From Nanobdellota archaeon (lineage in GTDB: Archaea; Nanobdellota; Nanobdellia; Pacearchaeales; GW2011-AR1), in the NCBI GenBank assembly GCA_024654565.1, contig JANLHM010000005.1, forward strand, positions 9,239-73,238: a stretch of DNA of 64,000 nt, written 5' to 3'. Every line of letters starts with the position of its first letter. The stretch's first letter is position 1. The notes under the pieces are model-generated. The model worked only from the letters and a program-made list of their open reading frames with translations, had not been told where the DNA came from and ran no database searches. Of this stretch, positions 19,355 to 62,319 are shown piece by piece. The position numbers and the translations under genes are program-made.

Positions 19355-19395
19355 AAATAAACAAAATATCCTTTTCTTTTAAAGATTTCTTAATT

Positions 19396-21501
19396 TTATT
19401 TTCCTATTTCTTTTAATCTCTTAAGAACCGCGTCAAGTTCTTCAGGGGACTTCTTTGGAAGAGGTCTTTGAACTGGTCTAGATGGAGATGGCACCATTTT
19501 TCTTGGAATTGGAGACCCCATCTTCGGACTTCTTGAATATTCTGGGGGGAACCTTGGAGGAAATCCTCTTCCTGGAAGAGGTCTGTTTCCACTACTTCTT
19601 GCTTTTGACTTATCAAAATACTCTTTTATCTTATCCCTATAGAGAATTGCAACAACTATTAGTATCACGAGGGCAAACAAAACCCATATCCACCAATAAC
19701 TTCCCCCTGAAGAAGATGAAGACTCGATACAACACACTTGAGTTCCGCTACATGAAAATTCACTTGTTGATTCATATCCTGAGCCACATGATGAACTACA
19801 AAAACCTAAATTGTCTTCACAAGTAAACTCTTCAGCTTCTAATTCACAATTTCCAGGCTGAAGGCAACAGGACTCTCCGTAATTTAAGTCATCAGTATTA
19901 AGAACGCTTCCTCCCGAACAATACTGGATGTTAGAACAAACTGTTCCTCCTTCTGATGAACAAAATGTTTGTGTGGGTTCGGTGTCACAACACTTCAATG
20001 CTCCTACACATTCATATTGAGGAAGAAGACTTCCCCCTGAACTTGTACATTGGGAACTAAATCCACAGGTAAAATTTTCAAGCTCACATTCTGATTCCCC
20101 TCCGCCTGAACCCAAGTCACAACAAACTTTAGAATCTGAACACAATCCATTTGTAACAGTTCCTGAACATGAATCAATATTGTTAACACAGGCATTTCCT
20201 TGCTCTGAACAAGTTTCATCCTCCTCAATTGGAGTCGGGTCACAGCAGACTGTACCCGCTGAACAACTGTATTCACTTCTTAACATTCCGCTACATGAAG
20301 TGTCAACGCCTATACAACCAAATCCAGCTTGGGAACAAGTGAGTCCTCCGACACCGCCCCCTCTTGGCCAGATTGAATAAAGTATGAAAGCATTTGAAAG
20401 AATGTTGTCGTTATCCCAACATCCATTTTCCCCTTGATAAGTAAGAAGCCATGTTTTTGAATTTTGTTTTTCTGGAAGAGTATTTACTCCCTGAAATGGT
20501 AAAAGGGCTAGTGCAGTGTCATAATACTTTCCCCTTCCCCCTGCAATTTCCCAATAATATTGGTCAAACACATGTTTTTGTTTTGTTAAAATTTCAGTTT
20601 TATGTTCGATTTTATTTGTTAACATATACAAAAATGATGAAGGGAAGGTATTCTGATTAACAGAAGCGAGGCTTGTTAAATAAGGAATAAACCTTAAAAC
20701 AGACTCATCCAATGAATCTAAAACTAAAGTTGTCCAAAGAGTTCCAAGGTAATTGCAACTTCCTGCACTCTTAAAGCAGAATGAACTTATTTTTTCAGTT
20801 GTGTCTCCTCCGCTTGATGCAGAGTGCACTTCGTCAGAAAGGTGGTAAGTTTGAGAAGTCTTTTCTCTATAAACTAAAGTAGTAATAAAATCTTTGCCAC
20901 ATGAAATCTGAAAAGTTCGGTCAAAACAATTTCCATTAATTTTAAACCAATAGTCATTGTTTGCTCTGGTCAAACATGCACCTGCGTTAGAACTTAATTT
21001 TTTATTTTCTGCGATGTCAAAAGTGTATTCGTCATACGGATTAAAAGATGAGCCCTGTCTTGGAACAAGGACAGTGCATGTCAAAGCTTGCTCTCCTCCT
21101 CCACTGTTATCAATCTGAAGGAACCAATCTAAATCTGTTGAAATTCCTTCCTGACTAAGAAGCCAAGCTTTTGGAAGAGTAATGTTTTCATCTACACTGT
21201 CTAGTGCAAGAACTGCTTTTGCAGTTGTTTCAAGGTCACAAGAAGATTGACCTTTATTCTTTGGCCAACACTCTCCATCCCCAAGAGTATCATTCAATAA
21301 AGAATCTTTACATTCTCCAACTGAAAGAAGCGAAAATATTTTTTGTTCAATAGTTAAATTTGAACAGGTTTCGTTTCCAATTTGATTTTCAAGACATAAA
21401 TATGCCTCTTCAACCTGATCAGATTCCGCAGAATGAACTCCCGCAATTAGAAAGACTGAAATTAAAACAGTAACAGCGAGTATCCCTACCTCTTTTCTCA
21501 T
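19396..21501 (-). CDS. type I membrane surface protein: alpha/alpha-toroid-like domain, five 6-Cys modules, TM helix, Pro-rich cytoplasmic tail
   Basis: 701 aa. Signal peptide (..AGVHSAES). QW-type motif WLLTYQGENGCW as in prenyltransferase/squalene-cyclase repeats. Residues 389-591 hold five tandem C-x6-C-x5/6-C-x8-12-C-x5-CC modules. TM helix WWIWVLFALVILIVVAILY. Tail rich in PxxP. Confidence 0.75.
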   Translation of the reverse strand: MRKEVGILAVTVLISVFLIAGVHSAESDQVEEAYLCLENQIGNETCSNLTIEQKIFSLLSVGECKDSLLNDTLGDGECWPKNKGQSSCDLETTAKAVLALDSVDENITLPKAWLLSQEGISTDLDWFLQIDNSGGGEQALTCTVLVPRQGSSFNPYDEYTFDIAENKKLSSNAGACLTRANNDYWFKINGNCFDRTFQISCGKDFITTLVYREKTSQTYHLSDEVHSASSGGDTTEKISSFCFKSAGSCNYLGTLWTTLVLDSLDESVLRFIPYLTSLASVNQNTFPSSFLYMLTNKIEHKTEILTKQKHVFDQYYWEIAGGRGKYYDTALALLPFQGVNTLPEKQNSKTWLLTYQGENGCWDNDNILSNAFILYSIWPRGGGVGGLTCSQAGFGCIGVDTSCSGMLRSEYSCSAGTVCCDPTPIEEDETCSEQGNACVNNIDSCSGTVTNGLCSDSKVCCDLGSGGGESECELENFTCGFSSQCTSSGGSLLPQYECVGALKCCDTEPTQTFCSSEGGTVCSNIQYCSGGSVLNTDDLNYGESCCLQPGNCELEAEEFTCEDNLGFCSSSCGSGYESTSEFSCSGTQVCCIESSSSSGGSYWWIWVLFALVILIVVAILYRDKIKEYFDKSKARSSGNRPLPGRGFPPRFPPEYSRSPKMGSPIPRKMVPSPSRPVQRPLPKKSPEELDAVLKRLKEIGK

Positions 21502-24654: not shown

Positions 24655-25659
24655 ATGGTTTACATATATAAAAAAAGCGCAGGGAAAAAGAATTATTATT
24701 ACCTAAGAATATCAAAAAGAAAAGGGAAAAAAATAATTACAAAAGACCTTGCTTATTTAGGCGGGACTATAAAAGAAGCAAGAAAAAAGCTTTCAAATTT
24801 GTCTTCCCATAAAGAAGAGATAAGAAAAGCATACAGAAATTTGAACATTTTTTTAGATACAAATTATTACCTTGAAAAAATAAAAGACCTAAAATTAAAA
24901 AAGAATGAATTTCTGGGTAAAAAGTTGGAAGAAATTGAGGCCTGTAGACTCCATTTTCAAGAAAAATTTCAAAATCTGGATAAATTGACAAAAAGAGAGA
25001 TTATGAAAAATTTCCTAATTGAATTTGCATATAACTCAACCTCAATCGAGGGAAATACCATAAATTTGGAAGAAGCTAAACATCTTTTACAAGAAGGGTT
25101 GACACCAAAGGATAAAACTCTTAGAGAGATATATGATTTAAAAAATACTGAAAGTGTTTTTTTTGAATTATACGAATCAAATTTCAAAGAAGAATTAACA
25201 CACAATTCCATAATCAAAATTCATGAAAAGCTCATGGAAAATGTTGATGCAAGAAAAGGATACAGAAATTCTGATGTTAGGGTTATAAGAAGTAATTTTG
25301 ATGCTTCCCCTGCACCATATGTGAAGACTGACATGGATTTATTGTTAAAATGGTATAAAAATAATGAGAAAAAAATTCACCCTTTTGTTCTTTCAACAAT
25401 ATTTCACCATAAATTTGAAAAGATTCATCCATTTATGGATGGAAATGGAAGAACTGGCAGAATGATTATGAATCTTATTCTTTTGAAAAAGGGATATCCC
25501 CCAATAGTAATAAGGAAAAAATTCAGGAAAGAATATTTAGATTCCATGAGAATTGCAGATAAAAGTAATTTAAATTCCTCAAAAAAAGAAGATTACCTAA
25601 ATCTTGTTCAATTTAGTGCAAACGAATTAACTGAAAATTATTGGAATTTATTTTTATAA
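24655..25659 (+). CDS. Fic-domain protein (AMPylase family) with internal inhibitory motif
   Basis: HPFMDGNGRTGR matches the Fic motif HxFx(D/E)GNGRxxR. Upstream STSIEGN fits the [ST]xxxE[GN] auto-inhibition helix. Confidence 0.9.
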   Translation: MVYIYKKSAGKKNYYYLRISKRKGKKIITKDLAYLGGTIKEARKKLSNLSSHKEEIRKAYRNLNIFLDTNYYLEKIKDLKLKKNEFLGKKLEEIEACRLHFQEKFQNLDKLTKREIMKNFLIEFAYNSTSIEGNTINLEEAKHLLQEGLTPKDKTLREIYDLKNTESVFFELYESNFKEELTHNSIIKIHEKLMENVDARKGYRNSDVRVIRSNFDASPAPYVKTDMDLLLKWYKNNEKKIHPFVLSTIFHHKFEKIHPFMDGNGRTGRMIMNLILLKKGYPPIVIRKKFRKEYLDSMRIADKSNLNSSKKEDYLNLVQFSANELTENYWNLFL

Positions 25660-25674
25660 AATTTAATTAATGTT

Positions 25675-26898
25675 TTATTTCTTCGGGAGAAGGGTGAAAG
25701 TTGAGTAATTTCCGTCGACAACTTCTTTTGCAAGTCTTTTGACAGCTTCAAGTTTTACTGCCTTAATTCTTTTAGGAAAATTATAAAATTCCTCAGCATT
25801 TCCAAAATTAATTTCACTCATTGCAAGACCAAATTCTTCATTTTCGCATGATTCAAGGTCCAAAAGAGAATCTCCGAGAAGTTTCTCTTTTGAAGAATTC
25901 AATTCACTTTTCTTCAGGTTTTTTGAAACATCAAAAAATTCTTCAATAATTGCTTTTTTAACCTTAGGAATATTGTTTTTTGAGCATCCAAATTCAAACT
26001 TAGAAAAGGAATAGAATGGAGTATCTTCAACATCTCCATCAGAACTGTAAACTATTGCCTCATTATGTCTTAATCGCCGATATAACCTTGAGGAAGTGCC
26101 CCCATTTAATACCCAGTACAGAACAATTGAGGAGTATATTTCTTTTTCAGTTGATAAAGGGGAATAATGTAAAAAAGCAAATCTTGACTGCTCAATATCT
26201 TTCTTATATTCAACAATGTGAGAAATTTTCTTTTTTATCTCGGGAACTTCTTTTTTTTGGAAAGTTTCTTTTTTGAAAGATTTTTCTATTTTTTTCTTTA
26301 ATTTCTTAAAATCATAATTTCCAACAACTGAAACAATCAAGTTATTGGGAGAAAAAACTTCTCTATATTTTTTAAACAAGTCATTTCTTTTAAATTTCTT
26401 CAAATTTTCTTTTGTCCCAATAAGAGGGATAGAGAAAGGAGGAAGGTATAATGTACTTTCCATTTTTTCAGAAACATATTGCTCTGGGCTGTCATTCACC
26501 ATGTCCATCTCTTCAAACACGACTTTTCTTTCTTTTTCAATATCTTTTTCATTGAAAAGGGAATTTTTGACAATGTCTATAAGTATGTCTAAACTCCTAT
26601 TTGTAAATTTACTTGGCGACTTAATCCACACCTTTACATAAGCACTTGAAGTGGCTGCATTAAATTCCCCTCCTGATTCTTCAATCTCTAAATCGAATTC
26701 TTCCCCAGTTTTACTTTTTGTTCCTTTAAGTAAAAGGTGCTCCATAAGGTGAGTCAAACCTTTTTCTTTTTCACTTTCATAGACCGCCCCAATTTTTGAA
26801 GTAATAGAAACAAAACAAACAGGAAAATCCCTTTTCTCAAAAAGTAGGGTAACTCCATTAGGAAGAACTTCACGCCTAAAATTTTTTCTTAAATCCAT
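25675..26898 (-). CDS. M16 (pitrilysin/insulinase) family zinc peptidase
   Basis: 407 aa with the HxxEH inverted zincin motif (GLTHLMEHLLLKG). Confidence 0.85.
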   Translation of the reverse strand: MDLRKNFRREVLPNGVTLLFEKRDFPVCFVSITSKIGAVYESEKEKGLTHLMEHLLLKGTKSKTGEEFDLEIEESGGEFNAATSSAYVKVWIKSPSKFTNRSLDILIDIVKNSLFNEKDIEKERKVVFEEMDMVNDSPEQYVSEKMESTLYLPPFSIPLIGTKENLKKFKRNDLFKKYREVFSPNNLIVSVVGNYDFKKLKKKIEKSFKKETFQKKEVPEIKKKISHIVEYKKDIEQSRFAFLHYSPLSTEKEIYSSIVLYWVLNGGTSSRLYRRLRHNEAIVYSSDGDVEDTPFYSFSKFEFGCSKNNIPKVKKAIIEEFFDVSKNLKKSELNSSKEKLLGDSLLDLESCENEEFGLAMSEINFGNAEEFYNFPKRIKAVKLEAVKRLAKEVVDGNYSTFTLLPKK

Positions 26899-27023: not shown

Positions 27024-27803
27024 ATGATGAAAGGGGTTGAAAGAAAAAAGGGACAAGTAACAATATTTGTTATAATTGCTCTCGTTATAATTGTTTTTGG
27101 GACCCTTATGTACTTTTTTTATCCAGGAATAAACTCATCAGAGTCAGGAATTGATGAAAATCCAAGGGCTTATATGCAAAATTGCGTTGAAGACCTCCTT
27201 CAAGAAAAAATTGATTTAATAAGCTCTCAAGGTGGAAGTATTGAACCTGATTCAAGTTATACTTACGACGGAGAACCTATTGAATACCTTTGTTACACAA
27301 GTAGACTTTCTGACCCTTGTACTGTGCAAAGAGCCTTTTTGGTAAGTCACATTGAGAGCGAAATAAAAGAAAGTACAGAAGACAAAGTTAATGAATGTTT
27401 TACAAAGATGGAAAGTGATTACCGAGCTAGGGGATATACTCTAACTCTTAACAGAGGAAACCTTCGAGCAACTCTTGCTCCAGGAAGGGCTATTCTTTTT
27501 AGTGATTCAAGACTTACTTTAACAAAAGACTCAACTCAAAATTATGAAAGTTTTGATATAGTTGTGAACAATAATCTTTTTGAACTCGCTTCACTTGCGA
27601 GAACGGTGATAGATTGGGAAAGTACCTATGGAATTGCTGACCCTTTTTACTTTATGACTTGGTACAAAGACAAATTCAACATAAAGAAAGTTTCACCTGA
27701 TGGGGGGAAAACAGCGATATGGACAATAGAAGACACAAATTCAGGGGACACTTTCAGATTTGCTGTAACTGAAAGCGAAATTTCTCTCGGAATAGGAATA
27801 TAA
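27024..27803 (+). CDS. pilin-like protein (class III signal peptide-like N-terminus), paralog of the 5107..6951 head region
   Basis: 259 aa. MMKGVERKKGQVTIFVIIALVIIVFG.. and the shared block ..NCVEDLLQEKIDLISSQGGSIEP... Confidence 0.7.
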   Translation: MMKGVERKKGQVTIFVIIALVIIVFGTLMYFFYPGINSSESGIDENPRAYMQNCVEDLLQEKIDLISSQGGSIEPDSSYTYDGEPIEYLCYTSRLSDPCTVQRAFLVSHIESEIKESTEDKVNECFTKMESDYRARGYTLTLNRGNLRATLAPGRAILFSDSRLTLTKDSTQNYESFDIVVNNNLFELASLARTVIDWESTYGIADPFYFMTWYKDKFNIKKVSPDGGKTAIWTIEDTNSGDTFRFAVTESEISLGIGI

Positions 27804-27804
27804 G

Positions 27805-29595
27805 ATGAAAAAGAGTGTGACAAAGACAAGACTTTTAGGAATTCTTTTAGCTTTTGCTTTTATTTTAATTACATTAAACTTTGTTTCTGCAGAAAACAAT
27901 GTTTGTTGTGAAAGAATCAAAACTAATTCTGACGGAAGTGGAGGCCAATGGTGTCAAATGGCTCCAGTTGAAGCTTGTGACACTTCAGATGGTTTACGAA
28001 CTGCTCCAACTTCATGTCAATCGACCGAGTTTTGTTCAGTAGGAACTTGTGTAGACATTCAAAAGGGACTTTGTGAAAGTGGAGTTTCAAGTGTAGTTTG
28101 TGGAGAGAGTGGAGGATTTTTTGATGAAAGAAGTCCTTCTGAAATCCCAAGTTGTAAATTAGGTTGTTGTGTCCTTGGACAAAATGGAGCAAACCTTGCA
28201 ACTGAAGTAAGATGTAGTGAAATGTCTTCACTTTATGGAGTGAACATTAACTTTAACCCTGGGATCACTTCTGAACTTCTCTGCCTTGCAACTGCAGGTG
28301 GAGCTGAAAAAGGGGCATGTGTATATGAAACTGAAACAGTAAGAACTTGTTCAATGCTCTCAAGGTCTGAATGTAACGACCTTCAGGGAAACATTTCAAC
28401 AGCAAACATCCCTGAATTTTATGAAGGATATTTATGTTCAAGTGCTGAGCTTCAAGGGGTTGATTGTGGGCCAAGTGAGGAAACAACATGTATTATAGGA
28501 GAAGATGAAATTTATTTTGTTGACACTTGCGGAAACACCGCTAACATTTATGATTCAAGTCGTCAGAGTGACCCATTATATTGGTCAAAAATAATTCAAA
28601 AAGAAGATTCTTGTGGGGCTGGAAACAGTAACGCTAATTCAGCTTCATGTGGAAATTGTAATTTTTATTCAGGAAGTACATGTAAAGAATATGTAAGGGG
28701 AGAAACTGCTCAACCAGCATATGGAGACTTTATATGTAAAGACCTTGGATGTAAATACGAAGAAGTTAGTTACCAACATGGAGAACAATGGTGTGGTGAA
28801 GCACCAGGAACCCCTAAGTTAACTGACCCCACTCAAACGGGGAATTATGTTTTTAATGGAAATTCTGATGCACAAGACACTAAAAAAGAAAACCTTCCTG
28901 GTTCAGTGTTCACAAAGCTCACATGCTTTAATGGAGAAATAACTGTTGACAATTGTTATGACGGTAGACAAAAAGTTTGTATTGAAGACGAAATAAACGG
29001 ATTCAAAAATGCGGCGTGTATGCCTAATTCGTGGCAGGAATGTTATGGTATAACCAATGAAGGAGATTGTATGGACAGGAATGCAAGAAAGTGTAATTGG
29101 TTACCTGAAGCTTATCCTTTCCCAACTGCCAGTTCATCTGAAGTTCCAAAGACGAGCCCAAATGATATATTTGCGGACTATTGGAGTGGTAGTGGAAGCC
29201 AGTATATACTTGCTGGAGCTTGCGTTCCACTTAATGCCCCTGGTTTTGACTTTTGGAAAGGAGAAGGAAACGGGGAAGCAATAAGTTCTCTTGGGACGAT
29301 AGTTTGCGAATATGACATCAGATGGAGTGTAGCTAACGGATATTACTTTGAAGAAGGTAAAGGACGAGAGTGTTTAACCAGTGCTGAAGAAGGGGGCGAC
29401 GGAGGACGTAAAATAAGAAATGACTGGCTTGACATAAACCTTGCAAGATGTCTTCAAATAGGGGACTCAGGACCAAAGTTAAATTACTTAGGATACCCTG
29501 GTGAGTCTCAGATTATCGCAGAGAAAATTTTGGCAGGGGGCGTTAAGGGGCAACAAATCGCTTATGACGGAAAAACAATGACTGGTCGTACATAA
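27805..29595 (+). CDS. Cys-rich secreted protein
   Basis: 596 aa. Sec signal (..LNFVSAENN). 39 Cys by my count. No recognised domain. Starts 2 nt after the upstream stop. Confidence 0.75.
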   Translation: MKKSVTKTRLLGILLAFAFILITLNFVSAENNVCCERIKTNSDGSGGQWCQMAPVEACDTSDGLRTAPTSCQSTEFCSVGTCVDIQKGLCESGVSSVVCGESGGFFDERSPSEIPSCKLGCCVLGQNGANLATEVRCSEMSSLYGVNINFNPGITSELLCLATAGGAEKGACVYETETVRTCSMLSRSECNDLQGNISTANIPEFYEGYLCSSAELQGVDCGPSEETTCIIGEDEIYFVDTCGNTANIYDSSRQSDPLYWSKIIQKEDSCGAGNSNANSASCGNCNFYSGSTCKEYVRGETAQPAYGDFICKDLGCKYEEVSYQHGEQWCGEAPGTPKLTDPTQTGNYVFNGNSDAQDTKKENLPGSVFTKLTCFNGEITVDNCYDGRQKVCIEDEINGFKNAACMPNSWQECYGITNEGDCMDRNARKCNWLPEAYPFPTASSSEVPKTSPNDIFADYWSGSGSQYILAGACVPLNAPGFDFWKGEGNGEAISSLGTIVCEYDIRWSVANGYYFEEGKGRECLTSAEEGGDGGRKIRNDWLDINLARCLQIGDSGPKLNYLGYPGESQIIAEKILAGGVKGQQIAYDGKTMTGRT

Positions 29596-29611
29596 AAAAA
29601 ATTAAAGAAAA

Positions 29612-31855
29612 ATGAACAAATTGTATAAAGAAGAAAAAGGAAGGGAATCGATTGCACTTAGTCAGATATTTATTTTGTTAATTGGAGTTTTCGCTTTTGT
29701 TTGGATGATTGGTGGAATTCCGGGGGTAAGTGCTGAGGAGGGGGAGTTTATCGGAACAGCTTGTAATGATGGCAACGGAAATACCGGGACATGTCAAACA
29801 GTTGATCCAAATACTGCCTGTTCGGGTGGAACATTTGTTTCTGGAAAATGTCCTGGAAGTTCGAATATTCAATGTTGTATTCCGAAAAAACCTGCTAATA
29901 ATAATCAAAATACAGGGGACGACTTTGAATTTAATAGACAAATGATGAAATTTTTATTTGAGATGGGTGAAAATGCCGTTAGTCCTAAACTGGGAATGGG
30001 AAATTCTAATGTCCCAATAAACAATCCTGACTTGGCTAAAGATTTGAAAAATAAAACAGAAGAATTTAATGGAACAGGTCTTAACTTCTTGGGGGGATTT
30101 GGAAACCTTGGAGGAGCAGTAGTGAATAGTCTTGGAGCAATTGGTGCTTCATATGGAGCAAACAGATTATTTTCATATATTGCTGATGAAATTGATGCGA
30201 ATGGTCCTTGGACTATAGGGCTTGAGGCATTGGGAGCAGGTACTGGAGCATTTGCTTTCTTATATTTTGTGGCATCGGTTAATCCTATTTTAGCATTGGT
30301 TGCTGCAGGAGTTGCAATTCTTTTGGCCATACTTTTTGGAGAAACAGTTGAAGAACAAGGAGTTGCCGTATTTTATTGTCTTCCATGGGATGCTCAAACA
30401 GGTGGACAATATTGTGATTTGTGTAACAATCAAGAAGTTCCGTGTTCAGAATATCAATGTAAAAGTTTGGGGCAAGCTTGTGAATTTGAACCAAGTTCAG
30501 AAGAAAGAGAAGGTGGACCTTCTTGTTTCTTTAATAACACTAATGACATTGATCCCCCAGTAATCATGCCTAATTCGGATGTTTTAACTGTTGATTACGT
30601 TTATGAAGACCCAGCTTCAGTTTCTTATCCTGACAGAGGAACAAAAATAATTAATACAGAAGAAAGTGACGGATGTTTAACCCCCTTCAGTCGAGTTACG
30701 TTTGGAGTTAAACTTAATGAACTTGCAAAATGTAAAATAAGTTTTGACAGAAGAGGTTCATACAATGAGATGTCAAACTACTTTGGAAGAGCAGGACGTG
30801 ATTACAACCACACTCAAACATTATTAATTCCTGAACTTGATACTTCTCTAGGTCAAGACAATCAGATTTTTGCTTATGTAAGGTGTCAAGACGCTAACGG
30901 GAACTCTAACCCTGCAAATTATGTATTCCAAATGTGTGTTCAGGAAGGTCCTGATTTAAAAGCCCCAGAAATTTATGGAACAAGTATAAAAAATGACTCA
31001 AAAGTTGCATTCAGTGTAATGAGTGCTCCTGTTGACTTCTATATAAATGAACCTGCAAACTGTAAATGGTCTTTTACCCCTGGAAGGCCTTATGGCACAA
31101 TGGAAAACAATATGTCTTGTTCAACTGACCCAACACAAATTAATTTGAGACTAAGTTACACATGTTCATCAAATTTGACAGGACTAAGACAAGACGAAAA
31201 AACAAATTATTATGTCAAGTGTCAAGACGTTTCTGAAAGATTAAACACGAATGTTCAAGATTATGTTTATACTCTTTCAAGTTCAAGAGCACTTTCAATA
31301 ACATCTGCCTCTCCAAATAACACTGTAATAAAAGACTCAACAAACCCTGCAAGAATAACTCTAAGAGCAACAACTTTCGGAGGAACTTATGACGGAAGTG
31401 CATTGTGTTACTACAGTAACACTGGTTATGAAGGTAGTTACATAGTGTTTGACAACTCCTCTTCAACTTCTCATTCAACAGACATATACCTTAATTCTGG
31501 AAATTACAATTACTCAATAAAGTGCCATGACTTTGGAGGAAATGCTGAAACAGTTAAGATACAATTTGATGTAGAAATTGATTCAGTTGCCCCCCTTATT
31601 TCAAGAGCATATTACGATGAAGGAAATATGAAAATAATTACTAACGAAAAAGCAGAGTGTCAGTTTTCAACAAGCAGTTGTGAGTATGTTTTTGGAGATG
31701 GGGTCGCATTTAATTCAGTTGATGGATTTAATCACAAGATTGGTTGGCAAACAGAGTCAACTCTTTACATAAAGTGTCAAGACATTTATGGAAATCAACC
31801 AGCTTCTGCAAGTGAATGTAGTATGACGGCTAGAGGGTATAACTATCAAATTTAA
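29612..31855 (+). CDS. membrane-associated Cys-rich surface protein with four tandem ~100-aa repeats
   Basis: 747 aa. N-terminal hydrophobic helix, 6-Cys module (CNDGNGNTGTCQTVDPNTACSGGTFVSGKCPGSSNIQCC), Gly-rich hydrophobic segment (residues ~155-245), then four repeats ending Y[VI][KR]C[QH]D..GN. Confidence 0.75.
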   Translation: MNKLYKEEKGRESIALSQIFILLIGVFAFVWMIGGIPGVSAEEGEFIGTACNDGNGNTGTCQTVDPNTACSGGTFVSGKCPGSSNIQCCIPKKPANNNQNTGDDFEFNRQMMKFLFEMGENAVSPKLGMGNSNVPINNPDLAKDLKNKTEEFNGTGLNFLGGFGNLGGAVVNSLGAIGASYGANRLFSYIADEIDANGPWTIGLEALGAGTGAFAFLYFVASVNPILALVAAGVAILLAILFGETVEEQGVAVFYCLPWDAQTGGQYCDLCNNQEVPCSEYQCKSLGQACEFEPSSEEREGGPSCFFNNTNDIDPPVIMPNSDVLTVDYVYEDPASVSYPDRGTKIINTEESDGCLTPFSRVTFGVKLNELAKCKISFDRRGSYNEMSNYFGRAGRDYNHTQTLLIPELDTSLGQDNQIFAYVRCQDANGNSNPANYVFQMCVQEGPDLKAPEIYGTSIKNDSKVAFSVMSAPVDFYINEPANCKWSFTPGRPYGTMENNMSCSTDPTQINLRLSYTCSSNLTGLRQDEKTNYYVKCQDVSERLNTNVQDYVYTLSSSRALSITSASPNNTVIKDSTNPARITLRATTFGGTYDGSALCYYSNTGYEGSYIVFDNSSSTSHSTDIYLNSGNYNYSIKCHDFGGNAETVKIQFDVEIDSVAPLISRAYYDEGNMKIITNEKAECQFSTSSCEYVFGDGVAFNSVDGFNHKIGWQTESTLYIKCQDIYGNQPASASECSMTARGYNYQI

Positions 31856-31943
31856 GGAATAAATTTTATTCAATAAACTTTTCTGTTTTTAATTTTTTGA
31901 ATTTGACCCCCATACTTATAAAGTTATACTCATTTAGAAAAAG

Positions 31944-32202
31944 ATGTTTGAAATATCCACCTATAACAAAAAAATAAAGAAAGAACTTGAAAAATATATT
32001 TCAATAAGACTTGGAATAAGTAAAAAACTTAACAAACTTAAAGAAAATCCAAGAAAAGAATCTGGTGCACATCCTCTTCACGGAAGGTTAACTGGAAAAA
32101 TAGTCCTGTTGGCTCGGCTCGAATATAAGGCTAATTTATAAAATATTAGATTCAGAAAAATTAATTATAGTGGAAGCTGTTGGTTCCCACAAAATTTACT
32201 AA
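31944..32202 (+). pseudogene. RelE/ParE-superfamily toxin gene interrupted by a frameshift
   Basis: Frame 0 gives ..AHPLHGRLTGKIV.. and stops at 32141. The +1 frame from 32104 gives ..CWLGSNIRLIYKILDSEKLIIVEAVGSHKIY*, the canonical RelE C-terminus. The frame switch lies between 32104 and 32110. Confidence 0.55.
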
Positions 32203-32215
32203 AATAGTTTTTAAG

Positions 32216-32389
32216 TTAAATATTTACCTTAATTAATTTTGAACCCATTCTTTCAAGAGTCTCACTTTCATTAATTTGTTCCATTAACCCTTTACTTTGT
32301 AGAATCTCAATTGTTGACTTTATTCCTTCTATTTGTCTCATAAAGTCGCTCAATTCTTCATAGGTGATATTTAATTCTTTTTTATTCAT
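32216..32389 (-). CDS. small antitoxin-like protein (57 aa, below track cutoff)
   Basis: Hand translation gives MNKKELNITYEELSDFMRQIEGIKSTIEILQSKGLMEQINESETLERMGSKLIKVNI. The ..TIEIL.S..LM..I.. segment resembles Phd/YefM-type antitoxin C-terminal regions. Convergent with the RelE pseudogene. Confidence 0.35.
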   Translation of the reverse strand: MNKKELNITYEELSDFMRQIEGIKSTIEILQSKGLMEQINESETLERMGSKLIKVNI

Positions 32390-32509
32390 ATTTAAAAAAC
32401 ATTAAATGAGTTTATAAAACTTTTTAGAATTGCCTCAAATTTACTTGTTTAAATGTCTCAAATTTAATTTTTCGCGAACCTTTAAAAATTACAGTAACAT
32501 AGTTTATGT

Positions 32510-32923
32510 ATGAGTAAAAAAGGGGAGATTAAACTTTCATTTGGAATGATTTTTTCAATAATTTTGATAATTGTTTTTTTAGGGTTCGCATTTTTTGCAA
32601 TACAAAAGTTTTTAGGGCTTCAAAAGGAGGTCACAACTCAAAAGTTTTATGAATCTCTTCAAAGTGATGTAAACAGTGTTTGGTCAAGTACTGAAGCCTC
32701 GACAAGAGTGGAATATATTGTTCCGGGAGACATAAAACAAGTTTGTTTTAAAGGCTCATCTAGTGAAAACGTTTATTTTTACACGGACCGGCCAAAACCA
32801 GGTAAACACATAGAACACTTAGACCTTCCCGAAGACTCATTTTGTTTTCCAGTGAGCAAAGGAAAAGCAAAGTTCACTTTAGAAAAAAATTATGGGGAGA
32901 ACCTTGTAAGGGTGAAGGAGTAA
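32510..32923 (+). CDS. pilin-like protein (class III signal peptide-like N-terminus)
   Basis: 137 aa. MSKKGEIKLSFGMIFSIILIIVFLGFAFFAIQ.. Confidence 0.6.
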   Translation: MSKKGEIKLSFGMIFSIILIIVFLGFAFFAIQKFLGLQKEVTTQKFYESLQSDVNSVWSSTEASTRVEYIVPGDIKQVCFKGSSSENVYFYTDRPKPGKHIEHLDLPEDSFCFPVSKGKAKFTLEKNYGENLVRVKE

Positions 32924-32940
32924 GATGAAAAAAAAGATTT

Positions 32941-33120
32941 TTACGGTTTTTTGATTTGCCCATTAATTAAAACGTTTTGTTGAACACTCCAACTGTTGTC
33001 TTTATTTCTTTTCATATAATCAGTCCAGTAATCTATAAATTTTAGCCTCTCTTCAAAATTCCTTTCTTTTTCTTTTTCAAGCTCTTTTAAGTTTACATTA
33101 ATTTCTTTTATTTTTCCCAT
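32941..33120 (-). CDS. small hypothetical protein (59 aa, below track cutoff)
   Basis: Hand translation gives MGKIKEINVNLKELEKEKERNFEERLKFIDYWTDYMKRNKDNSWSVQQNVLINGQIKKP. Its start overlaps the end of the nucleotidyltransferase gene by 13 nt. Confidence 0.3.
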   Translation of the reverse strand: MGKIKEINVNLKELEKEKERNFEERLKFIDYWTDYMKRNKDNSWSVQQNVLINGQIKKP

Positions 33121-33701
33121 TTTTCTAAAAACCTCATTTTTTTGCTAACATTTAGCTTATTTAATGAATCAATCAACTCCTCTTTATTAATTTTTTCTTT
33201 GAAAAGGTTATACAAATGCCTTGCGTCTTCAATATCTTTTTGGGATCCAAGAAAAAGCTTGTAGGCAATTTGAAGTTCAAGTGGAGATATAAAAAAAATT
33301 TCAGAACCAATCAAAACCTTTATTTTATGAAGATAAGAAAATCGATCCAATTCATTTTTTATAAATTTTAATTCAATATTAGGGATGGGATTTTTATTTT
33401 TTGCAAACCTTATTGCATGCTCCCCAAGCATATCAAATGCCTCTTCATATTTAGAAGTATTAATGCACCAAAAACCATTTTTTTGTAGGTTTTCCCACAA
33501 GTTTAGAAAATTGACTTTGTCCAATTTAGGAATTAAAAGGTCAACATCTTCTGTTGCACGAGATCTTCCCATAAGAATTGACACATAACCTGAAACAATA
33601 ACATATTCCTTTAAGGAGGAAATAAAATCTAAAACAAACTTATCAAGATTATTCAAAGTTTTCTCAATTTTTATTTCCCCTTTTTTTGAGTTGTAATCCA
33701 T
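33108..33701 (-). CDS. Pol-beta-superfamily nucleotidyltransferase-fold protein
   Basis: 197 aa. VSGYVSILMGRSRATEDVDLLI fits the hG[GS]x9-13Dh[DE]h minimal NTase motif. Confidence 0.5.
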   Translation of the reverse strand: MDYNSKKGEIKIEKTLNNLDKFVLDFISSLKEYVIVSGYVSILMGRSRATEDVDLLIPKLDKVNFLNLWENLQKNGFWCINTSKYEEAFDMLGEHAIRFAKNKNPIPNIELKFIKNELDRFSYLHKIKVLIGSEIFFISPLELQIAYKLFLGSQKDIEDARHLYNLFKEKINKEELIDSLNKLNVSKKMRFLEKWEK

Positions 33702-33803
33702 AAATGTAAAAAGACTTACTTGATTTAAACTTTACTCTTAACCCAATTATAGATACAAATGTCTTCTCACAAAATTTAAAAGTTAAGAAACTGTTATTTA
33801 AAC

Positions 33804-34736
33804 ATGATTAAAAAAGGGGGATTTCTTGACATTTCATTTTCATGGATTTTTGCTTTTCTAGTTGGGGCAATTATTCTTTTTGTGGCAATTTATTTTGTGA
33901 CTCAATTCGGGGAAGGGAAAACAAATCAAAGTTCAGCTGAATCTGGTACAAAACTCCTTAATTTATTACTCCCACTTGAAACAGGAGTTGAATCGGGAAA
34001 GTCAGTAAGTATAACTTTTCCTGTAAAAACTCGAATAAACCACTTCTGTCAAGTTTCAGGAACTTTTGGAAAAGAAAGTATATCTATTCAAGAATTTATA
34101 AGAAATAAATGGACTCTTTCAGGTGTGAACATTTCTTCTGAAGGGGAATACCTCTTTTTTCCAAAAACAATTGAAGGAAAAGAGTTTTTTGCTTTTTCAA
34201 TGTCATACGAATCTCCATTCAAAATTGCAAACCTCATTTACATTACTGATGCAGATAAATTCTATTGCTTTTCAGGGGCTCCTTTGAATATTGAAGAAGA
34301 ACTTCAAAACTTTAACAATGAAAAATTTAAGTTTGACAGTTGCTCGGGAGAAAATGAATGGATTCAAGTTTGTTTTAGCGGGGGAAGCAATTGCGACATT
34401 GAAGTAAACGTTAACAGGAAAGAAGTAAAGAAAGACGACAAAATATATTATTTTGAAGGAAATTCACTTATGTACGCTGCAATTTTTTCGGATAAAGAAG
34501 TTTATGAGTGTGAAATTCAAAGACTTATGAAAAGAGGGGTTAAACTCTCAGAAATTTATCAAGAGAAGTCTTTGAATTTAAGAAGTGTAGGGTGTGAATC
34601 TGACCTCGCTTCTGAATTTGCAGGGTTACAAAATACATTTTCATCGGTCAGGGATTCAGAAGACTTAACAAGTTTAGCTAGTGTTTCAAATGAAATGAAC
34701 AACGTAAACAGATTTTCGAGGTGTACACTGTGGTAA
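33804..34736 (+). CDS. pilin-like protein (class III signal peptide-like N-terminus)
   Basis: 310 aa. MIKKGGFLDISFSWIFAFLVGAIILFVAIYF... Ten Cys in the extracellular part. Confidence 0.65.
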   Translation: MIKKGGFLDISFSWIFAFLVGAIILFVAIYFVTQFGEGKTNQSSAESGTKLLNLLLPLETGVESGKSVSITFPVKTRINHFCQVSGTFGKESISIQEFIRNKWTLSGVNISSEGEYLFFPKTIEGKEFFAFSMSYESPFKIANLIYITDADKFYCFSGAPLNIEEELQNFNNEKFKFDSCSGENEWIQVCFSGGSNCDIEVNVNRKEVKKDDKIYYFEGNSLMYAAIFSDKEVYECEIQRLMKRGVKLSEIYQEKSLNLRSVGCESDLASEFAGLQNTFSSVRDSEDLTSLASVSNEMNNVNRFSRCTLW

Positions 34737-35245
34737 GTAAAAAAGCCCAGGTGAAGGTTCAACAGATGGCTTTTATGATAATTGCTTTAACCCTCTTTTT
34801 TGCGCTTGTCGGATTATTTGCCTTGTCTTTTGCGTTTTCAGGAATTAAAGAATCTAAAGCCCTCCTTGATGAAGAAGAGGCAACACTATTAGTCGGGAAA
34901 CTTTCAAATGCCCCTGAACTTTCATGTGGGAATGCCTTTCAGGAAAGTAGATCAAACTGTATTGACATGGATAAAGCCGTCATCTTAAAGGAAAGAATAA
35001 ACGACTACAAAAACTTCTGGGGAGTTGAAGGGATAACCGTTCTTGTTCTTTCGTCAAGTTTAACTAATGAATGCACCATAAACAATTACCCCGAATGTGG
35101 AAGACTTACAGTGTTGTCAAGTGGAAACTTAGGAATTGACAAATCTGACTTTGTTTCTCTATGCCGAAAAGAAAAAAAGGGGGAAACATTTTATGACAAG
35201 TGTGAACTGGGGGAACTGATAGTAAGAATTTCAAATGAACAATAA
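34721..35245 (+). CDS. pilin-like protein (start codon uncertain)
   Basis: Track ORF starts at GTG 34721. ..VSKKAQVKVQQMAFMIIALTLFFALVGLFALSF.. Overlaps the upstream stop. Confidence 0.55.
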   Translation: MYTVVSKKAQVKVQQMAFMIIALTLFFALVGLFALSFAFSGIKESKALLDEEEATLLVGKLSNAPELSCGNAFQESRSNCIDMDKAVILKERINDYKNFWGVEGITVLVLSSSLTNECTINNYPECGRLTVLSSGNLGIDKSDFVSLCRKEKKGETFYDKCELGELIVRISNEQ

Positions 35246-35705
35246 AAAAGCTCAGTCTGAAATGGTAGGGTTTGCAATAATTGTGATAATTGTTGCAGTT
35301 TTGATACTTGTCTTTATTTCCCTTTCATTGAACAAAAATTCAAATGAATTTCTTGACAGCTCAAAAACAGATTCATTTATCCAAGCAACACTTCAATTTA
35401 CTACTAATTGCGAGATAAATGGAAACAATTTGTCTTACCTTAAATTGATTGGTTCTTGTGAAGAAGAAAGAACTTGCGACAACGGGATTAACTCTTGCCA
35501 GGTTTTGAATTTGACTTCAGTTAGTCTTGTTGAAAATGGTTGGAGAGTTGGAGAGGATTTACCTGTAAAAGGATACAAATTTGAAGTAAAGTCTGAGGGA
35601 ATAAACCTTGTTGAACTTTTTAGAGGAAATGAAACAGGGAGCACAAAGGGTTCAAGACAGACTTTTAGTGGAGGAGTTGAAATTTCTTTAGTCACTTATT
35701 ACTAA
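35235..35705 (+). CDS. pilin-like protein (class III signal peptide-like N-terminus)
   Basis: 156 aa. MNNKKAQSEMVGFAIIVIIVAVLILVFISL.. Overlaps the upstream gene by 11 nt. Confidence 0.6.
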   Translation: MNNKKAQSEMVGFAIIVIIVAVLILVFISLSLNKNSNEFLDSSKTDSFIQATLQFTTNCEINGNNLSYLKLIGSCEEERTCDNGINSCQVLNLTSVSLVENGWRVGEDLPVKGYKFEVKSEGINLVELFRGNETGSTKGSRQTFSGGVEISLVTYY

Positions 35706-36325: not shown

Positions 36326-36667
36326 CTAAATCTTAAAGTGAATAACCATCTCATCTACCACAATTATTGGTTTGTGACAAGTTCTCCCATTAACTTTTTC
36401 CTTAACAAGCTCAATAAACCCGAATCTTTCAAGGATCTTAATGTCATCCATCACTGCCTTAAATGGTCTTTTTAGGGTCTTCGACAGAGCATAAATTGAA
36501 GAGGGATTTTTGTATTTAATGGTGTCAAGAATACGCGCTTTTTCTTTAGAGAGGACCTTTTTTAGTGAAGAAATGCCATCAAAATTATATTTCTCTTTTC
36601 CCTTAATGAATATAAAACTCCCTTCAGATTCTTTTAACAACACTTCCCTTATTTTTGTTTTTACCAC
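36326..36667 (-). CDS. predicted winged-helix DNA-binding protein
   Basis: 113 aa. ..KARILDTIKYKNPSSIYALSKTLKRPFKAVMDDIKILERFGFIEL.. is HTH-like. Confidence 0.45.
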   Translation of the reverse strand: MVKTKIREVLLKESEGSFIFIKGKEKYNFDGISSLKKVLSKEKARILDTIKYKNPSSIYALSKTLKRPFKAVMDDIKILERFGFIELVKEKVNGRTCHKPIIVVDEMVIHFKI

Positions 36668-37727: not shown

Positions 37728-40355
37728 ATGAAATTAAATTTCAAAAAAATCTCAGCAGTTTTTGGTGCAATTGTAATGACAGGTGCTACTTTAGGTTTCG
37801 CTGCAGCTGCAGCTTACCCGGCTCCTTTTGTACAAAGCGGTGCGGCTAACGTTGCTATCGTTTATGGTACAGGAGAAGGAGTTAGCTCACTTGACATGGT
37901 TTCAGTTACAGGAGTACAAACTTCTTTAGCTAGCTATGTTACAGGCGAAAGTACTACAATTGATGGTGAGTCTATTAGTTTGGCAAGTGGTTCTGATTTA
38001 TACTTGAATGATGACCTTGCGGAAAACATTCAAACTATAACAAAGTCAAACCTTCCAAACACATTAGCGGACGGAACATTCACTGATGACGGAGGTACTG
38101 ACTATGATTATGAACAAACAATCTCAATTGGTACTAACACAGCAAACAATGTTGCTTTCAGTGACTCGGACAATGACTTTAATGACCCTGCTATAATAAT
38201 GGATTTATCAACTAGTACTGCAAACTACGCTTACAGATGGTCTGTAACTTTCGACAATGCTGTTGCTTTTAACGCAACAGACTCAGAAGGTGAAGAATTA
38301 GTTCTTTTCGGTAAAACATATACTGTCGGAACTGATACTGACGCAGACACTCTTGTATTACTTGGAGGTTCTGATTCAACATTGATTAATGTTGGAGAAT
38401 CAAAAACTCTTACAGTTGGTGGCGAAAATTATGTAGTTGTACTTACTGGAATTAGTAGTGCAACAACAGCTGAAGCAGGAATAACTGTTAATGGTGAATC
38501 TAAGACATTTACTCAAGGCCAAACTAAAAAAGTGGCTGGAGTTGATGTTTATATGAAAACTGTTTTCAGAACTGGAGACAACACTGGATACATTGAAGTT
38601 CAAGTGGGAGCAGACAAATTAATTTTTGAAAGCGGAAACGCTGTTCAAGAAGGGTCAGACAGTACAGACATTGATGGAACTCTTGTAACAATTACAGGAG
38701 GAGTTAATGCTACGACTGCTATGACTATTGCTGTTGCTGCTGAAGACAACGATGCAAACCACATCTTGATGGGAGAATCATTTACTGACCCAGTATTTGG
38801 AACTTTAAGTTTAGTTTTTGAAGGTGCAAATAATGCCCCTGTGATTGTTAATCACAAGGACACTTCATCTGACAGAAACATGCTTGAAATTTCAAAAGGT
38901 GGAGACAGAGAACTTCAATTGACGTTCACTGACTCAGCTGGCAAAACTGCGACAGTTCCATTTACTTATCAAGATGCTTTGCAAGATGATAGTAGTAATG
39001 ATATAGAAGTCGTTGAAGGAGCCACACTTACAGTGGATGAATATTTCCTCTTGAATAGTGGAAATTACCAGCACTTGATGCAGTTAACTAAGGTTGACTC
39101 AGATCAATCTGGCCAAGTTACTTTCAAAGACCTATTGACTGGAACAAGTTACGGAACAAACTCTGGAACTAACCATTCTGTAGCTCAGACTGTATACATT
39201 TCTAACCAAGCGTATACGATTACAAGAGTAAGTGACACAAGTGTAAACATAACTTCTAGCGATATTGCGACAAACAAGGCGGTTTTCCCTTACATTGAAC
39301 TTGTAGGTGGAGAGGACCATAGATTTGCATTTACTGATGAAGTTGCTATTGGAGATACAGTTACTGCTGTAGCAAACGATACTGCAGTAAATGGTTTGAT
39401 ATATGACCTTCCTACAGGAAGTGTTCAATTTAGAATCGCTGATGCAGGTGTTTTGGATGCAAATACAACTACTGTGGACTATGATATTGACGAAGCAGGA
39501 AGTTGGACAAATATTGCTGCTTTAACTGGAGACGGAACTAGTGAAGAACTATCTTTTGCTGTTGGAACAGTAGTTTACAACTTTGACTTAAGTGTTGCAG
39601 ATTCAACTGCTGCTGTGCTTACAATAGTAAATGCGTCTATAGACACCGGTTTTAGTGCTGGACTTAACCCCGCAGATGAACAGACATCGCCAGGTATTTT
39701 GTTTGTGGAAGACGAAGATAAATCTGAATCTATTACTACAACAAAGAATGCTGTGTTATTGAATACGAGTGATAGTGGAACTTACTCAACAGTTTTAGCT
39801 CCATTGTTCTCAAATACTGTAAGCACTGAATATGATACTGAGACATTCGATGACTCTGACTTTGTTGGTTACCTAACTAACTTTGGTACATACGTCGTGA
39901 GAGACAGTTCAGATACAAATCAAGCTTTCGCAAGTTTGACTTACCCTGAACAACCAATGTACTTCGACGTTAGTTTCGCAGAATCTGACTCTGTTTCATC
40001 GTCTGGTGGACTTGGAGACGTTCTTGTAATGGACTCTGAAGTTTCAAATGTTTCTACTAAGAACTTAGTGATTGTAGGTGGTAGTTGTATTAACTCAGCT
40101 GCTGCAACTGCATTAGGTGTTTCACAACACACATGTGGTGCTGCTTTCACATCTTCTACAGGAGTAAGTGCTGGACAATTCTTGATCAAAGGTGTTCAAG
40201 ATGCATTTAGTGAAGGCAAACTTGCTCTAGTTGTTGCTGGTTATGAAGCTGCGGATACTCAAAACGCTGCTACATACCTAGTAAATAGAGACGTTGACAC
40301 TTCGTCAAGTTACATGGGAACATCTGCTACAGAAGCAACTTTAGTTGTTGCATAA
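37728..40355 (+). CDS. putative S-layer / major cell-surface protein
   Basis: 875 aa. Signal peptide (MKLNFKKISAVFGAIVMTGATLGFAAAAAYPAPF..). T/S/D/A/G/V-rich, with only two Cys, both near the C-terminus. Codons biased to GCT/GGT/GTT/ACT. Followed by a long poly-T tract. The ends (..YPAPFVQSG..AIVYG.. and ..NLVIVGGSCINSAAA..KLALVVAGYEAADTQNAATYL) recall euryarchaeal S-layer protein termini; this resemblance is tentative and from memory. Confidence 0.75.
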   Translation: MKLNFKKISAVFGAIVMTGATLGFAAAAAYPAPFVQSGAANVAIVYGTGEGVSSLDMVSVTGVQTSLASYVTGESTTIDGESISLASGSDLYLNDDLAENIQTITKSNLPNTLADGTFTDDGGTDYDYEQTISIGTNTANNVAFSDSDNDFNDPAIIMDLSTSTANYAYRWSVTFDNAVAFNATDSEGEELVLFGKTYTVGTDTDADTLVLLGGSDSTLINVGESKTLTVGGENYVVVLTGISSATTAEAGITVNGESKTFTQGQTKKVAGVDVYMKTVFRTGDNTGYIEVQVGADKLIFESGNAVQEGSDSTDIDGTLVTITGGVNATTAMTIAVAAEDNDANHILMGESFTDPVFGTLSLVFEGANNAPVIVNHKDTSSDRNMLEISKGGDRELQLTFTDSAGKTATVPFTYQDALQDDSSNDIEVVEGATLTVDEYFLLNSGNYQHLMQLTKVDSDQSGQVTFKDLLTGTSYGTNSGTNHSVAQTVYISNQAYTITRVSDTSVNITSSDIATNKAVFPYIELVGGEDHRFAFTDEVAIGDTVTAVANDTAVNGLIYDLPTGSVQFRIADAGVLDANTTTVDYDIDEAGSWTNIAALTGDGTSEELSFAVGTVVYNFDLSVADSTAAVLTIVNASIDTGFSAGLNPADEQTSPGILFVEDEDKSESITTTKNAVLLNTSDSGTYSTVLAPLFSNTVSTEYDTETFDDSDFVGYLTNFGTYVVRDSSDTNQAFASLTYPEQPMYFDVSFAESDSVSSSGGLGDVLVMDSEVSNVSTKNLVIVGGSCINSAAATALGVSQHTCGAAFTSSTGVSAGQFLIKGVQDAFSEGKLALVVAGYEAADTQNAATYLVNRDVDTSSSYMGTSATEATLVVA

Positions 40356-44799: not shown

Positions 44800-44834
44800 T
44801 AATATAGATAAAAAATATTATTTAAATAAACTTT

Positions 44835-44921: not shown

Positions 44922-44944
44922 GGAAAAACGAGATAAAGGAAAAA

Positions 44945-62286: not shown

Positions 62287-62319
<33 letters not shown>

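Follow-up and report, generated by a model that had tools for sequence, protein, structure and literature searches.

Paralogous pilin-like head proteins paired with large disulfide-rich secreted proteins: a candidate cell-surface apparatus of Pacearchaeota-type DPANN archaea

Among the systems described to date, the EppA-processed (DUF361) pilins and minor pilins of Methanococcus maripaludis, referred to as "TFF system 1" (PMC3875500; PMC4858521; bioRxiv 10.64898/2026.04.22.720090), come closest to two gene loci of a Nanobdellota archaeon that we describe here. EppA-processed pilins of Methanococcus carry leaders of 5–13 amino acids (aa), which end in Gly and are followed by a conserved Gln at position +1 (PMC3875500), and a study that also mentions PilY modelled archaeal type IV pilus loci as containing S-layer-like proteins, two large adhesins and no fewer than five minor pilins (PMC4858521). 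"System 1" loci are reported in some DPANN archaea, and class III (prepilin-type) proteins also occur in genomes having the peptidase but no filament locus (bioRxiv 10.64898/2026.04.22.720090). The proteins of DPANN attachment structures are stated to be unknown (PMC11420986), and Pacearchaeota are counted among the most reduced and strongly host-attached lineages (10.1101/2020.05.14.094862). The stretch analysed in this study, termed the window in the following, comprises 64,000 nucleotides (nt) (GCA_024654565.1, contig JANLHM010000005.1, positions 9,239–73,238 of the forward strand) and contains two pilin-like "head" genes, each followed by genes for large, Cys-rich secreted proteins:

27024–27803, plus strand: head2, 259 aa with 4 Cys; class III-like signal (..RKKG, putative cleavage site, QVTIF..) and an alpha/beta ectodomain
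27805–29595, plus strand: c596, 596 aa with 39 Cys; Sec-secreted; begins 1 nt past the head2 stop
29612–31855, plus strand: c747, 747 aa with 27 Cys; surface protein
5107–6951, minus strand: head1, 614 aa with 10 Cys; N-terminal ~300 aa homologous to all of head2, then a ~310-aa C-terminal extension
1–5110, minus strand: the giant, at least 1,703 aa in the window with 29 Cys; Sec signal; runs past the left edge

An earlier note on this DNA, called the original prediction below, had described the head2 locus as the second, paralogous copy of a module made of a pilin-like head and Cys-rich secreted giants. Its open reading frames (ORFs) and residue counts match those listed above, and its observation is real and significant, with the gist being right. 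On the sequence evidence, head1 and head2 are true paralogues, because an alignment of the two family profiles with hhalign extends over 254 columns (head2 5–259 versus head1 4–300; probability 99.1%, E=7.2e-19) and reciprocal searches with hidden Markov models (HMMs) against the window, translated in six frames, recovered both heads with E-values of 1e-14 to 1e-15; no third head copy was found in the window by the same searches. As originally noted, the quoted N-termini of head1 and head2 (GQVTIFVIIALVIIVFG versus GQITIFVIIALVIIVLG) are identical at 15 of 17 positions, and a C-x(n)-QGG[SY]IEP block is present and alignable in both proteins. Pairwise BLASTP covers the first 72 aa only (38% identity, E=5e-9); the question of whether the similarity reaches past the hydrophobic helix is answered positively by the profile alignment. 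Head orthologues from other genomes align across 150–220 residues.

Both heads have numerous relatives. For head2, we found 238 full-length homologues of about 250–285 aa, and a profile search of a library of 1.84 billion cluster representatives returned 531 representatives below an E-value of 1e-30 and 4,715 below 1e-3; for head1, the homologues number more than 1,930, with lengths of about 610 aa and ~45% identity. All named head homologues are labelled "hypothetical", a Pfam domain is present in none of them, and their source names are Pacearchaeota, Nanoarchaeota or "Woesearchaeota" metagenome-assembled genomes (MAGs), which bears out the DPANN placement made originally. Neither for head2 nor for head1 does any Pfam or NCBIfam family reach E≤1, Pfam searches with the head1 orthologue set gave noise only, the head2 profile retrieved nothing from the PDB sequences, and an exact look-up of the window head1 returned no record. 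More generally, Pfam and NCBIfam searches with all nine proteins of both loci yielded nothing meaningful.

The AlphaFold2 (AF2) model of head2 (pLDDT 88, pTM 0.76) comprises a helix (residues 10–32), a disordered linker (34–42) around the conserved Pro34 and a two-lobed alpha/beta (helix-plus-sheet) domain; Q11, T13, F15, I17 and the four Cys C54, C90, C99 and C125 are invariant in the family. Foldseek searches against PDB and BFVD gave no credible relative of this model, the best query-normalised TM-scores being 0.15 (PDB) and 0.26 (BFVD), and no similarity to solved pilins (best query-normalised TM-score 0.15). The head contains no CxxC motif, and no thioredoxin-like fold appeared in the model or the structure searches.

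The pairing of heads with large secreted proteins is conserved, in line with the neighbourhood postulated originally. Among 105 head2-type genes having sequence downstream, 103 are followed by a same-strand gene of the c596 type (81 cases) or the c747 type (22 cases), with a median gap of 1 nt between the head2-type gene and the next cargo gene. In a sample of 80 metagenomic loci, a giant stands directly after head1 in 73 cases; among the exceptions, the contig ends there (six), the head gene is split (four) or no explanation is apparent (one). In the window, the ATG of the giant overlaps the head1 stop as ATGA, as read in the sequence. The large proteins carry ordinary Sec-type signals, consistent with their earlier description as signal-peptide-bearing and Cys-rich.

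Regarding the cargo of head2, c596 has ~30 invariant Cys and its orthologues follow head2 in 81 cases; it features no transmembrane (TM) segment besides the signal peptide and no membrane anchor, no recognisable domain was identified, and a profile search of PDB sequences came back empty. A weak match to CoV_NSP4_N, a Cys-rich luminal domain of coronaviruses, appeared in 12 of 36 c596 orthologues (best E=7e-5) and was judged to be probably an artefact of cysteine composition. The AF2 model of c747 (pLDDT 78.6) shows, in this order, a signal peptide, a beta-rich six-Cys knot (residues 50–91), a disordered linker, three hydrophobic helices (~169–243, modelled at low confidence), a Cys-rich domain and four to five Ig-like sandwiches with pLDDT >90. 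For this model, Foldseek retrieved only generic strings of Ig/Fn3/cadherin type, and the profile search of PDB sequences gave nothing; Pfam searches of the c747 orthologues found Big_13 in 19 of 35 and LysM in one, with otherwise generic Ig-like matches only. The N-terminus of c747 consists of a Lys-rich n-region, a conserved ALSQ-containing core and a ...VSA site, and this signal looks more like the Sec type.

About one quarter of the genomes (~22) harbor one or two extra upstream modules, e.g., L013:5092-9952, L061:4490-9435 and L054:885-9906 (two in tandem in L054), in which a divergent head2' is followed by a protein of 1,200–1,380 aa with 60–68 Cys; the window has no such module. According to BLAST, this protein combines a c596-like N-terminal half, a hydrophobic/TM region and a c747-like C-terminal half. 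Because both proteins are fused in other genomes (a Rosetta-stone fusion), c596 and c747 probably act together, with c596 apparently taking the place of the variable N-terminal module of c747.

At the head1 locus, complete giants of other genomes comprise 1,774–3,007 aa, and the window giant, whose visible portion represents the conserved core only and ends at residue 1,703, is 44–48% identical to giants of 2,334 and 2,701 aa. No membrane segment besides the signal peptide was found in it. The first ~1,800 aa are conserved over ~40–65 giants and the remainder is variable. A lytic transglycosylase domain (SLT) scores above the Pfam gathering cut-off of 21.3 bits in five giants (L005, L105, L091, L116, L144; 26.9–52.5 bits), at differing positions, and an SLT-like region is present in at least ten, including from aa 2148 the giant of L087, whose head1 is the closest relative found of the window head1 (72% identical). 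In one giant (L091:11833-19764), ankyrin repeats (Ank_2, E=1e-24) lie C-terminal of the SLT, representing an effector-like module on a secreted archaeal protein. A "large lytic murein transglycosylase" (GH23) of Woesearchaeota/Pacearchaeota MAGs was previously taken as a sign of attack on, or symbiosis with, bacteria (PMC9723730; PMC11537232). These proteins and the giants share the SLT/GH23 domain and a secreted, multi-thousand-residue architecture, and the reported genes very probably belong to the same giant gene family; the reports scored the GH23 domain only, and the ~1,800-aa core, the variable distal end and the head coupling are absent from PMC9723730 and PMC11537232.

Not every part of the original picture holds. 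The notion of a second paralogous module stands for the heads; the giant, tested as a paralogue of c596 or c747, showed no detectable homology to either, and the paralogy between both loci appears limited to the heads. Similarly, the proposed divergence of the cargo is found in the N-terminal module of c747 (6–13% identity across orthologues at aa 60–150 versus 35–60% in the C-terminal 500 aa) and in the C-terminal end of the giants, but orthologues are conserved in c596, in the last 500 aa of c747 and over the first ~1,800 aa of the giants; the cargo is not hypervariable. Furthermore, the module at head2 does not end at 31855 as first proposed; it is a cluster of seven genes in the order head2, c596, c747, 137, 310, 174 and 156, all on the plus strand and spanning 27024–35705 in the window, with four more pilin-like genes:

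32510–32923, plus strand: 137-aa pilin-like protein, ..KKG before and EIKLSFGMIFSIILII.. after the putative site; same position in 42 loci
33804–34736, plus strand: 310-aa pilin-like protein, ..KKG before and GFLDISFSWIFA.. after the putative site; 8 conserved Cys; position kept in 45 loci
34721–35245, plus strand: 174-aa pilin-like protein, ..KKA before and QVKVQQMAFMII.. after the putative site; 6 invariant Cys; overlaps the 310-aa gene by 16 nt
35235–35705, plus strand: 156-aa pilin-like protein, ..KKA before and QSEMVGFAIIV.. after the putative site; 4 invariant Cys; overlaps the 174-aa gene by 11 nt

In a synteny sample of 80 species-level genomes, a near-invariant order was observed: genes for two surface proteins of 347 and 701 aa (both minus strand), primase (minus) and PCNA (plus), followed by the seven-gene cluster (plus), a regulator of the HVO_A0114 type (minus) and an S-layer protein (plus). 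All seven genes are present in 34 of the 41 loci with enough downstream sequence, and in most of the others the sequence ends before the cluster does. The cluster occurs in nearly every genome sampled and is effectively single-copy; the genes of the window cluster are orthologous to those of its relatives at 30–50% identity, and the component cores are conserved at 30–60% identity.

Six proteins, i.e., head2, head1 and the 137-, 310-, 174- and 156-aa proteins, carry a class III signature, which lends support to the label "pilin-like" chosen in the original prediction. In all these families except that of the 310-aa protein, leaders are 5–41 aa long and poorly conserved, with K at −3, K/R at −2 and G/A(S) at −1, and positions +1 to +8 are near-invariant within each family. 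Position +1 is Q in 47/47 head2, 41/41 head1 and 36/36 each of the 174- and 156-aa sequences, as well as in 29/35 of the 137-aa family (with −1 G/A and −2 K/R), and the consensus motifs of the mature N-termini read QVTIFIII, QMKLSFGMIFS, QMKIQQMAFM and QEEMVGFA. Further invariant features are the SFGMIFS core and two Cys in the 137-aa family, +1 Q, +3 K, +5 Q and +6 Q in 36/36 orthologues of the 174-aa protein, and +1 Q, +3 E, +6 G and +7 F in 36/36 orthologues of the 156-aa protein. Orthologues of the 310-aa protein show KKG followed by [F/A/Y]LQISF at their N-termini. A hydrophobic segment follows the leader in head2, head1 and the 310-aa protein and, as judged by eye, in the remaining pilin-like proteins.

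The ectodomains of the signal-bearing families are mutually unrelated, except for an N-terminal stretch of 82 columns common to the 137- and 310-aa families; the 174- and 156-aa families are alike at the N-terminus only. Because the ectodomains are unrelated, the K/R-G/A-Q motif represents a shared signal and not whole-protein descent. The 310-aa ectodomain, tested as a relative of the head domain, proved unrelated to it, and Pfam searches with the 156-, 174- and 310-aa orthologue sets gave noise only. The invariant Cys come in even numbers in every pilin-like family, as would suit extracellular domains held by disulfide bonds. Overall, the signature matches that of EppA-type substrates.

Compared with TFF system 1, the loci described here share the short basic leader ending in Gly/Ala, the +1 Gln and the hydrophobic helix, as well as the succession of several pilin genes, accompanied by an S-layer-type gene and by large secreted proteins resembling adhesins. 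In contrast to that system, there is no pilin-model match and no +5 Glu, the ectodomains represent new families, the head consists of a ~230-aa alpha/beta domain for which no structural relative was found, no ATPase, platform protein or peptidase was found nearby, and every head has a single giant Cys-rich protein as its obligatory partner. Minor-pilin complexes with a large adhesin are reportedly formed by FimU-PilVWXE and PilY1 in Pseudomonas, and Myxococcus xanthus is said to have three paralogous clusters of minor pilins and PilY1. The likeness to these complexes lies in four to five small pilin-like proteins accompanied by a large non-pilin adhesin, thought to be held at the tip, and in module paralogues with differing large proteins; unlike them, the present loci show no sequence or fold similarity, no DUF2341/PilY1 domain and no linked motor genes, and their cargo is disulfide-rich. 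Consistently, a Pfam match to DUF2341 or the PilY1 C-terminal domain was absent from c596, c747, the giants and their orthologue sets.

In the CdiB/CdiA system, the gene of a dedicated partner lies beside that of a giant secreted protein whose N-terminal bulk is conserved and whose C-terminal module can be exchanged. The giants described here likewise feature a conserved N-terminal bulk, an exchangeable C-terminal module and a small dedicated partner gene. Unlike in CdiB/CdiA, however, this partner is a single-helix pilin-like protein instead of an outer-membrane transporter, an immunity gene is not evident, and the two systems share no homology. A further parallel is offered by the substrates of the Sulfolobus bindosome, i.e., globular extracellular proteins with a prepilin-type N-terminus that serves surface retention and not the formation of a long filament (bioRxiv 10.64898/2026.04.22.720090); such class III proteins are, as noted above, also found in genomes lacking a recognisable filament locus. 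Bindosome substrates are, however, solute-binding proteins of known folds, whereas the heads have no such domain and are paired with giants.

We lean slightly towards a reading in which both loci are parts of one lineage-wide cell-surface apparatus, with pilin-like anchors presenting disulfide-rich adhesins or enzymes to a host. This reading draws directly on the paralogy of the heads, the signature of the signals, the strict adjacency and synteny of the genes, the fusion of c596 with c747 and the domain content; signal cleavage, head-cargo binding, the formation of a filament or bundle and a role in host contact are what we infer in addition. Cleavage after K/R-G/A would leave Gln-initiated hydrophobic helices, which could remain membrane-embedded or come together as a short, pilus-like stem, as in minor pilins and pseudopilins. 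Each head, translationally coupled with its large disulfide-rich partner, may then act as dedicated anchor or adaptor for this anchorless, Sec-exported protein, i.e., c596 for head2 and the giant for head1, which would correspond to the anchor/adaptor-plus-adhesin function suggested in the original prediction. c747 could form a membrane-embedded stalk of Ig-like domains, physically cooperating with c596, and the variable c747 tip and the end of the giant (LysM, lytic transglycosylase, ankyrin) might contact and locally breach, or partly digest, the envelope of the partner cell. Because of the SLT and LysM modules, this partner is probably a bacterium with peptidoglycan.

Several observations weigh against this reading. 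These families lack the +5 Glu that is typical of pilins of Methanococcus and bacteria, and no Pfam or NCBIfam pilin model is matched by any of the six proteins or their orthologue sets. The head2 model does not look like that of a canonical pilin, its 23-residue helix being cut off from the alpha/beta domain by the disordered, Pro-containing linker. Neither in the window nor within 10 kb of 80 loci did a crude regex, together with precomputed Pfam lists (four loci, L001-L006), reveal a pilus ATPase, platform protein or prepilin peptidase: in the regex search, 0 of 2,268 ORFs from the 80 loci had the Walker A and B motifs of a secretion (T2SS E-type) ATPase, with genes elsewhere in the genomes being possible, and no A24-type peptidase was detected; likewise, no secretion ATPase or platform protein was seen by eye among window ORFs of at least 110 aa. 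One paper moreover states that DPANN genomes lack type IV pilus components, and the universal single-copy synteny with replication and S-layer genes equally fits a housekeeping role in the envelope. Because there are no motor genes nearby, no pilin-model match and a head fold that looks non-canonical, we would liken the apparatus to a minor-pilin/adhesin complex and not class it as a type IV pilus.

The housekeeping role just mentioned would make the proteins permanent components of an envelope scaffold, organising or tethering the S-layer and the pseudo-periplasmic space, with the heads partnering wall-like glycoproteins and without any specific function in host contact. Near-universal, single-copy occurrence, the fixed synteny with primase, PCNA and the S-layer gene, the conserved regulator after the cluster and the conservation of the component cores all speak for this explanation. 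We nevertheless consider it unlikely, if still worth keeping in mind: SLT, LysM and ankyrin distal modules are of kinds used on or against other cells, paralogous modules were gained and lost between genomes, and an SLT would have no peptidoglycan of its own cell to act on in an archaeon. To our knowledge, archaea do not possess peptidoglycan of their own. As for the signals, they could be uncleaved anchors, which would make all six proteins type II membrane proteins of the ordinary kind, with K/R-G/A-Q arising from the positive-inside rule and lineage conservation; heads of this kind could still tether cargo. This option gains from the missing filament machinery and pilin-model matches, from the published statement on DPANN and from the finding that a FlaFind-style core pattern fits only 38/47 head2 and 29/41 head1 sequences and none of the other four families. 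A topology rule alone, however, does not explain an invariant Gln right after G/A in four families with unrelated ectodomains and leaders of 5–41 aa, a pattern that matches EppA-type peptidase substrates, and we regard uncleaved anchors as quite unlikely.

Rather than being a structural anchor, the head might also serve as an export or folding helper for its Cys-rich neighbour, i.e., a membrane-tethered chaperone or disulfide-handling factor, a function that the tight translational coupling of head and cargo, the 27–68 Cys of the cargo and the four invariant Cys of the head would suit. The missing CxxC motif and thioredoxin-like fold, the large extra C-terminal domain of head1, which would be needless in such a role, and the fact that anchorless cargo must still be held at the cell render this proposal very improbable. 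A chance likeness of two generic hydrophobic N-terminal helices, to which the 72 residues covered by pairwise BLASTP could have pointed, is refuted by the 254-column profile alignment and the reciprocal HMM matches, with the 150–220 aligned residues of the orthologues speaking against it as well, and its probability is next to nil.

Returning to the pilin-like anchors presenting disulfide-rich cargo, a bolder form of this reading sees in the clusters the host-attachment and feeding apparatus of Pacearchaeota-type DPANN, consisting of a pilin-like bundle without a classical motor, paralogous head adaptors and exchangeable giants that would bind bacterial peptidoglycan, cut it and deliver effector-like modules, e.g., ankyrin repeats. 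We consider this form doubtful; if true, it would mean an archaeal surface machine aimed at bacterial walls and, for the first time, a list of the proteins that build a DPANN attachment structure. DPANN account for a large part of the diversity of archaea and spend their lives attached to other cells, and the gene set in question, seven genes beside an S-layer gene and the head1-giant pair, is nearly universal. Its internal logic is that of a pilin-like anchor coupled to anchorless disulfide-rich cargo, with SLT, LysM and ankyrin ends pointing to bacterial partners, and how these archaea hold and open a host becomes a testable question. At least eight of the protein families have no Pfam or NCBIfam model, and the head domain is confidently modelled with a fold unmatched in PDB and BFVD. 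For the head family and the seven-gene cluster no description was found in the literature, and for the giants only the GH23 domain had been noted earlier; what we describe is a version of the pilin-like surface-protein theme that was not previously described and is widely conserved in an uncultured lineage.

Further genes accompany the two loci in the window and in related genomes:

18311–19354 and 19396–21501 (together 18311–21501), minus strand: two C-terminally anchored surface proteins of 347 and 701 aa on the far side of primase/PCNA; synteny in 34–42 loci
36326–36667, minus strand: small DNA-binding protein of the HVO_A0114 family (Pfam PF25212, E=7.8e-15), directly after the cluster in ~40 loci
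37728–40355, plus strand: S-layer-type protein of 875 aa, the downstream neighbour; orthologues carry PF05124 S_layer_C; it adjoins the cluster in 35 loci
7245–7535, minus strand: 96-aa soluble protein with a basic tail, upstream of head1
7005–7220, minus strand: 71-aa two-helix membrane protein, upstream of head1

A six-Cys module of ~35 aa (C-x-C-x-C-x-C-x-CC) is repeated in the 701-aa protein and carried by c747; it was counted in 36 of 42 orthologues of the 701-aa protein, 22 of 93 c747-type and 8 of 81 c596-type proteins, and 0 of 1,551 other ORFs. The 347- and 701-aa surface proteins may belong to the same apparatus as the cluster. Upstream of head1, orthologues of the 96- and 71-aa proteins are found in closer relatives (L005, L006 and ~10–15 metagenome loci), and the ribosomal proteins S3Ae and L44e are also encoded there.

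In the window, the cluster is interrupted in three places, namely the gap between PCNA and head2, 31944–32141 and 33108–33701. The first (24655–26898) holds a Fic/DOC-family gene (Pfam E=5e-22) and an opposite-strand gene for a 407-aa protein, peptidase-like by eye; because head2 stands directly after PCNA in almost all of the 80 genomes, this pair looks like a lineage-specific insertion. The 65-aa ORF at 31944–32141 (plus strand) resembles, by eye, a remnant of a RelE/ParE-type toxin, and the 197-aa ORF at 33108–33701 (minus strand) has no Pfam match. A TATA-like box, TTTATAAATA, lies ~20–27 nt upstream of head2, and A/T-rich TATA-like boxes were seen by eye ahead of 27024, 32510 and 33804, which is weak evidence at ~32% GC; from these boxes, three transcription units are suggested for the window cluster.

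The gene content of the window is archaeal (FtsY, SRP54, FtsZ, PCNA, primase, ribosomal proteins and an archaeal 23S rRNA), and its base composition ranges from 29 to 41% G+C, with ~32% GC for the genome; taken with the source names of the head homologues, these features assign the window to a Pacearchaeota-type DPANN archaeon. At 44251–46585 (minus strand), a gene for a 182-aa polytopic membrane protein, without a Pfam match, adjoins that of a 546-aa secreted protein with a C-terminal hydrophobic tail and basic residues, and by eye this pair is like an archaeosortase-like enzyme and its substrate. The archaeal 23S rRNA gene (60606–64000, minus strand) is cut by the right window edge, and within it lies a 158-aa ORF (61635–62111, minus strand) with a LAGLIDADG-like motif, seen by eye, which probably represents an intron-encoded homing endonuclease.

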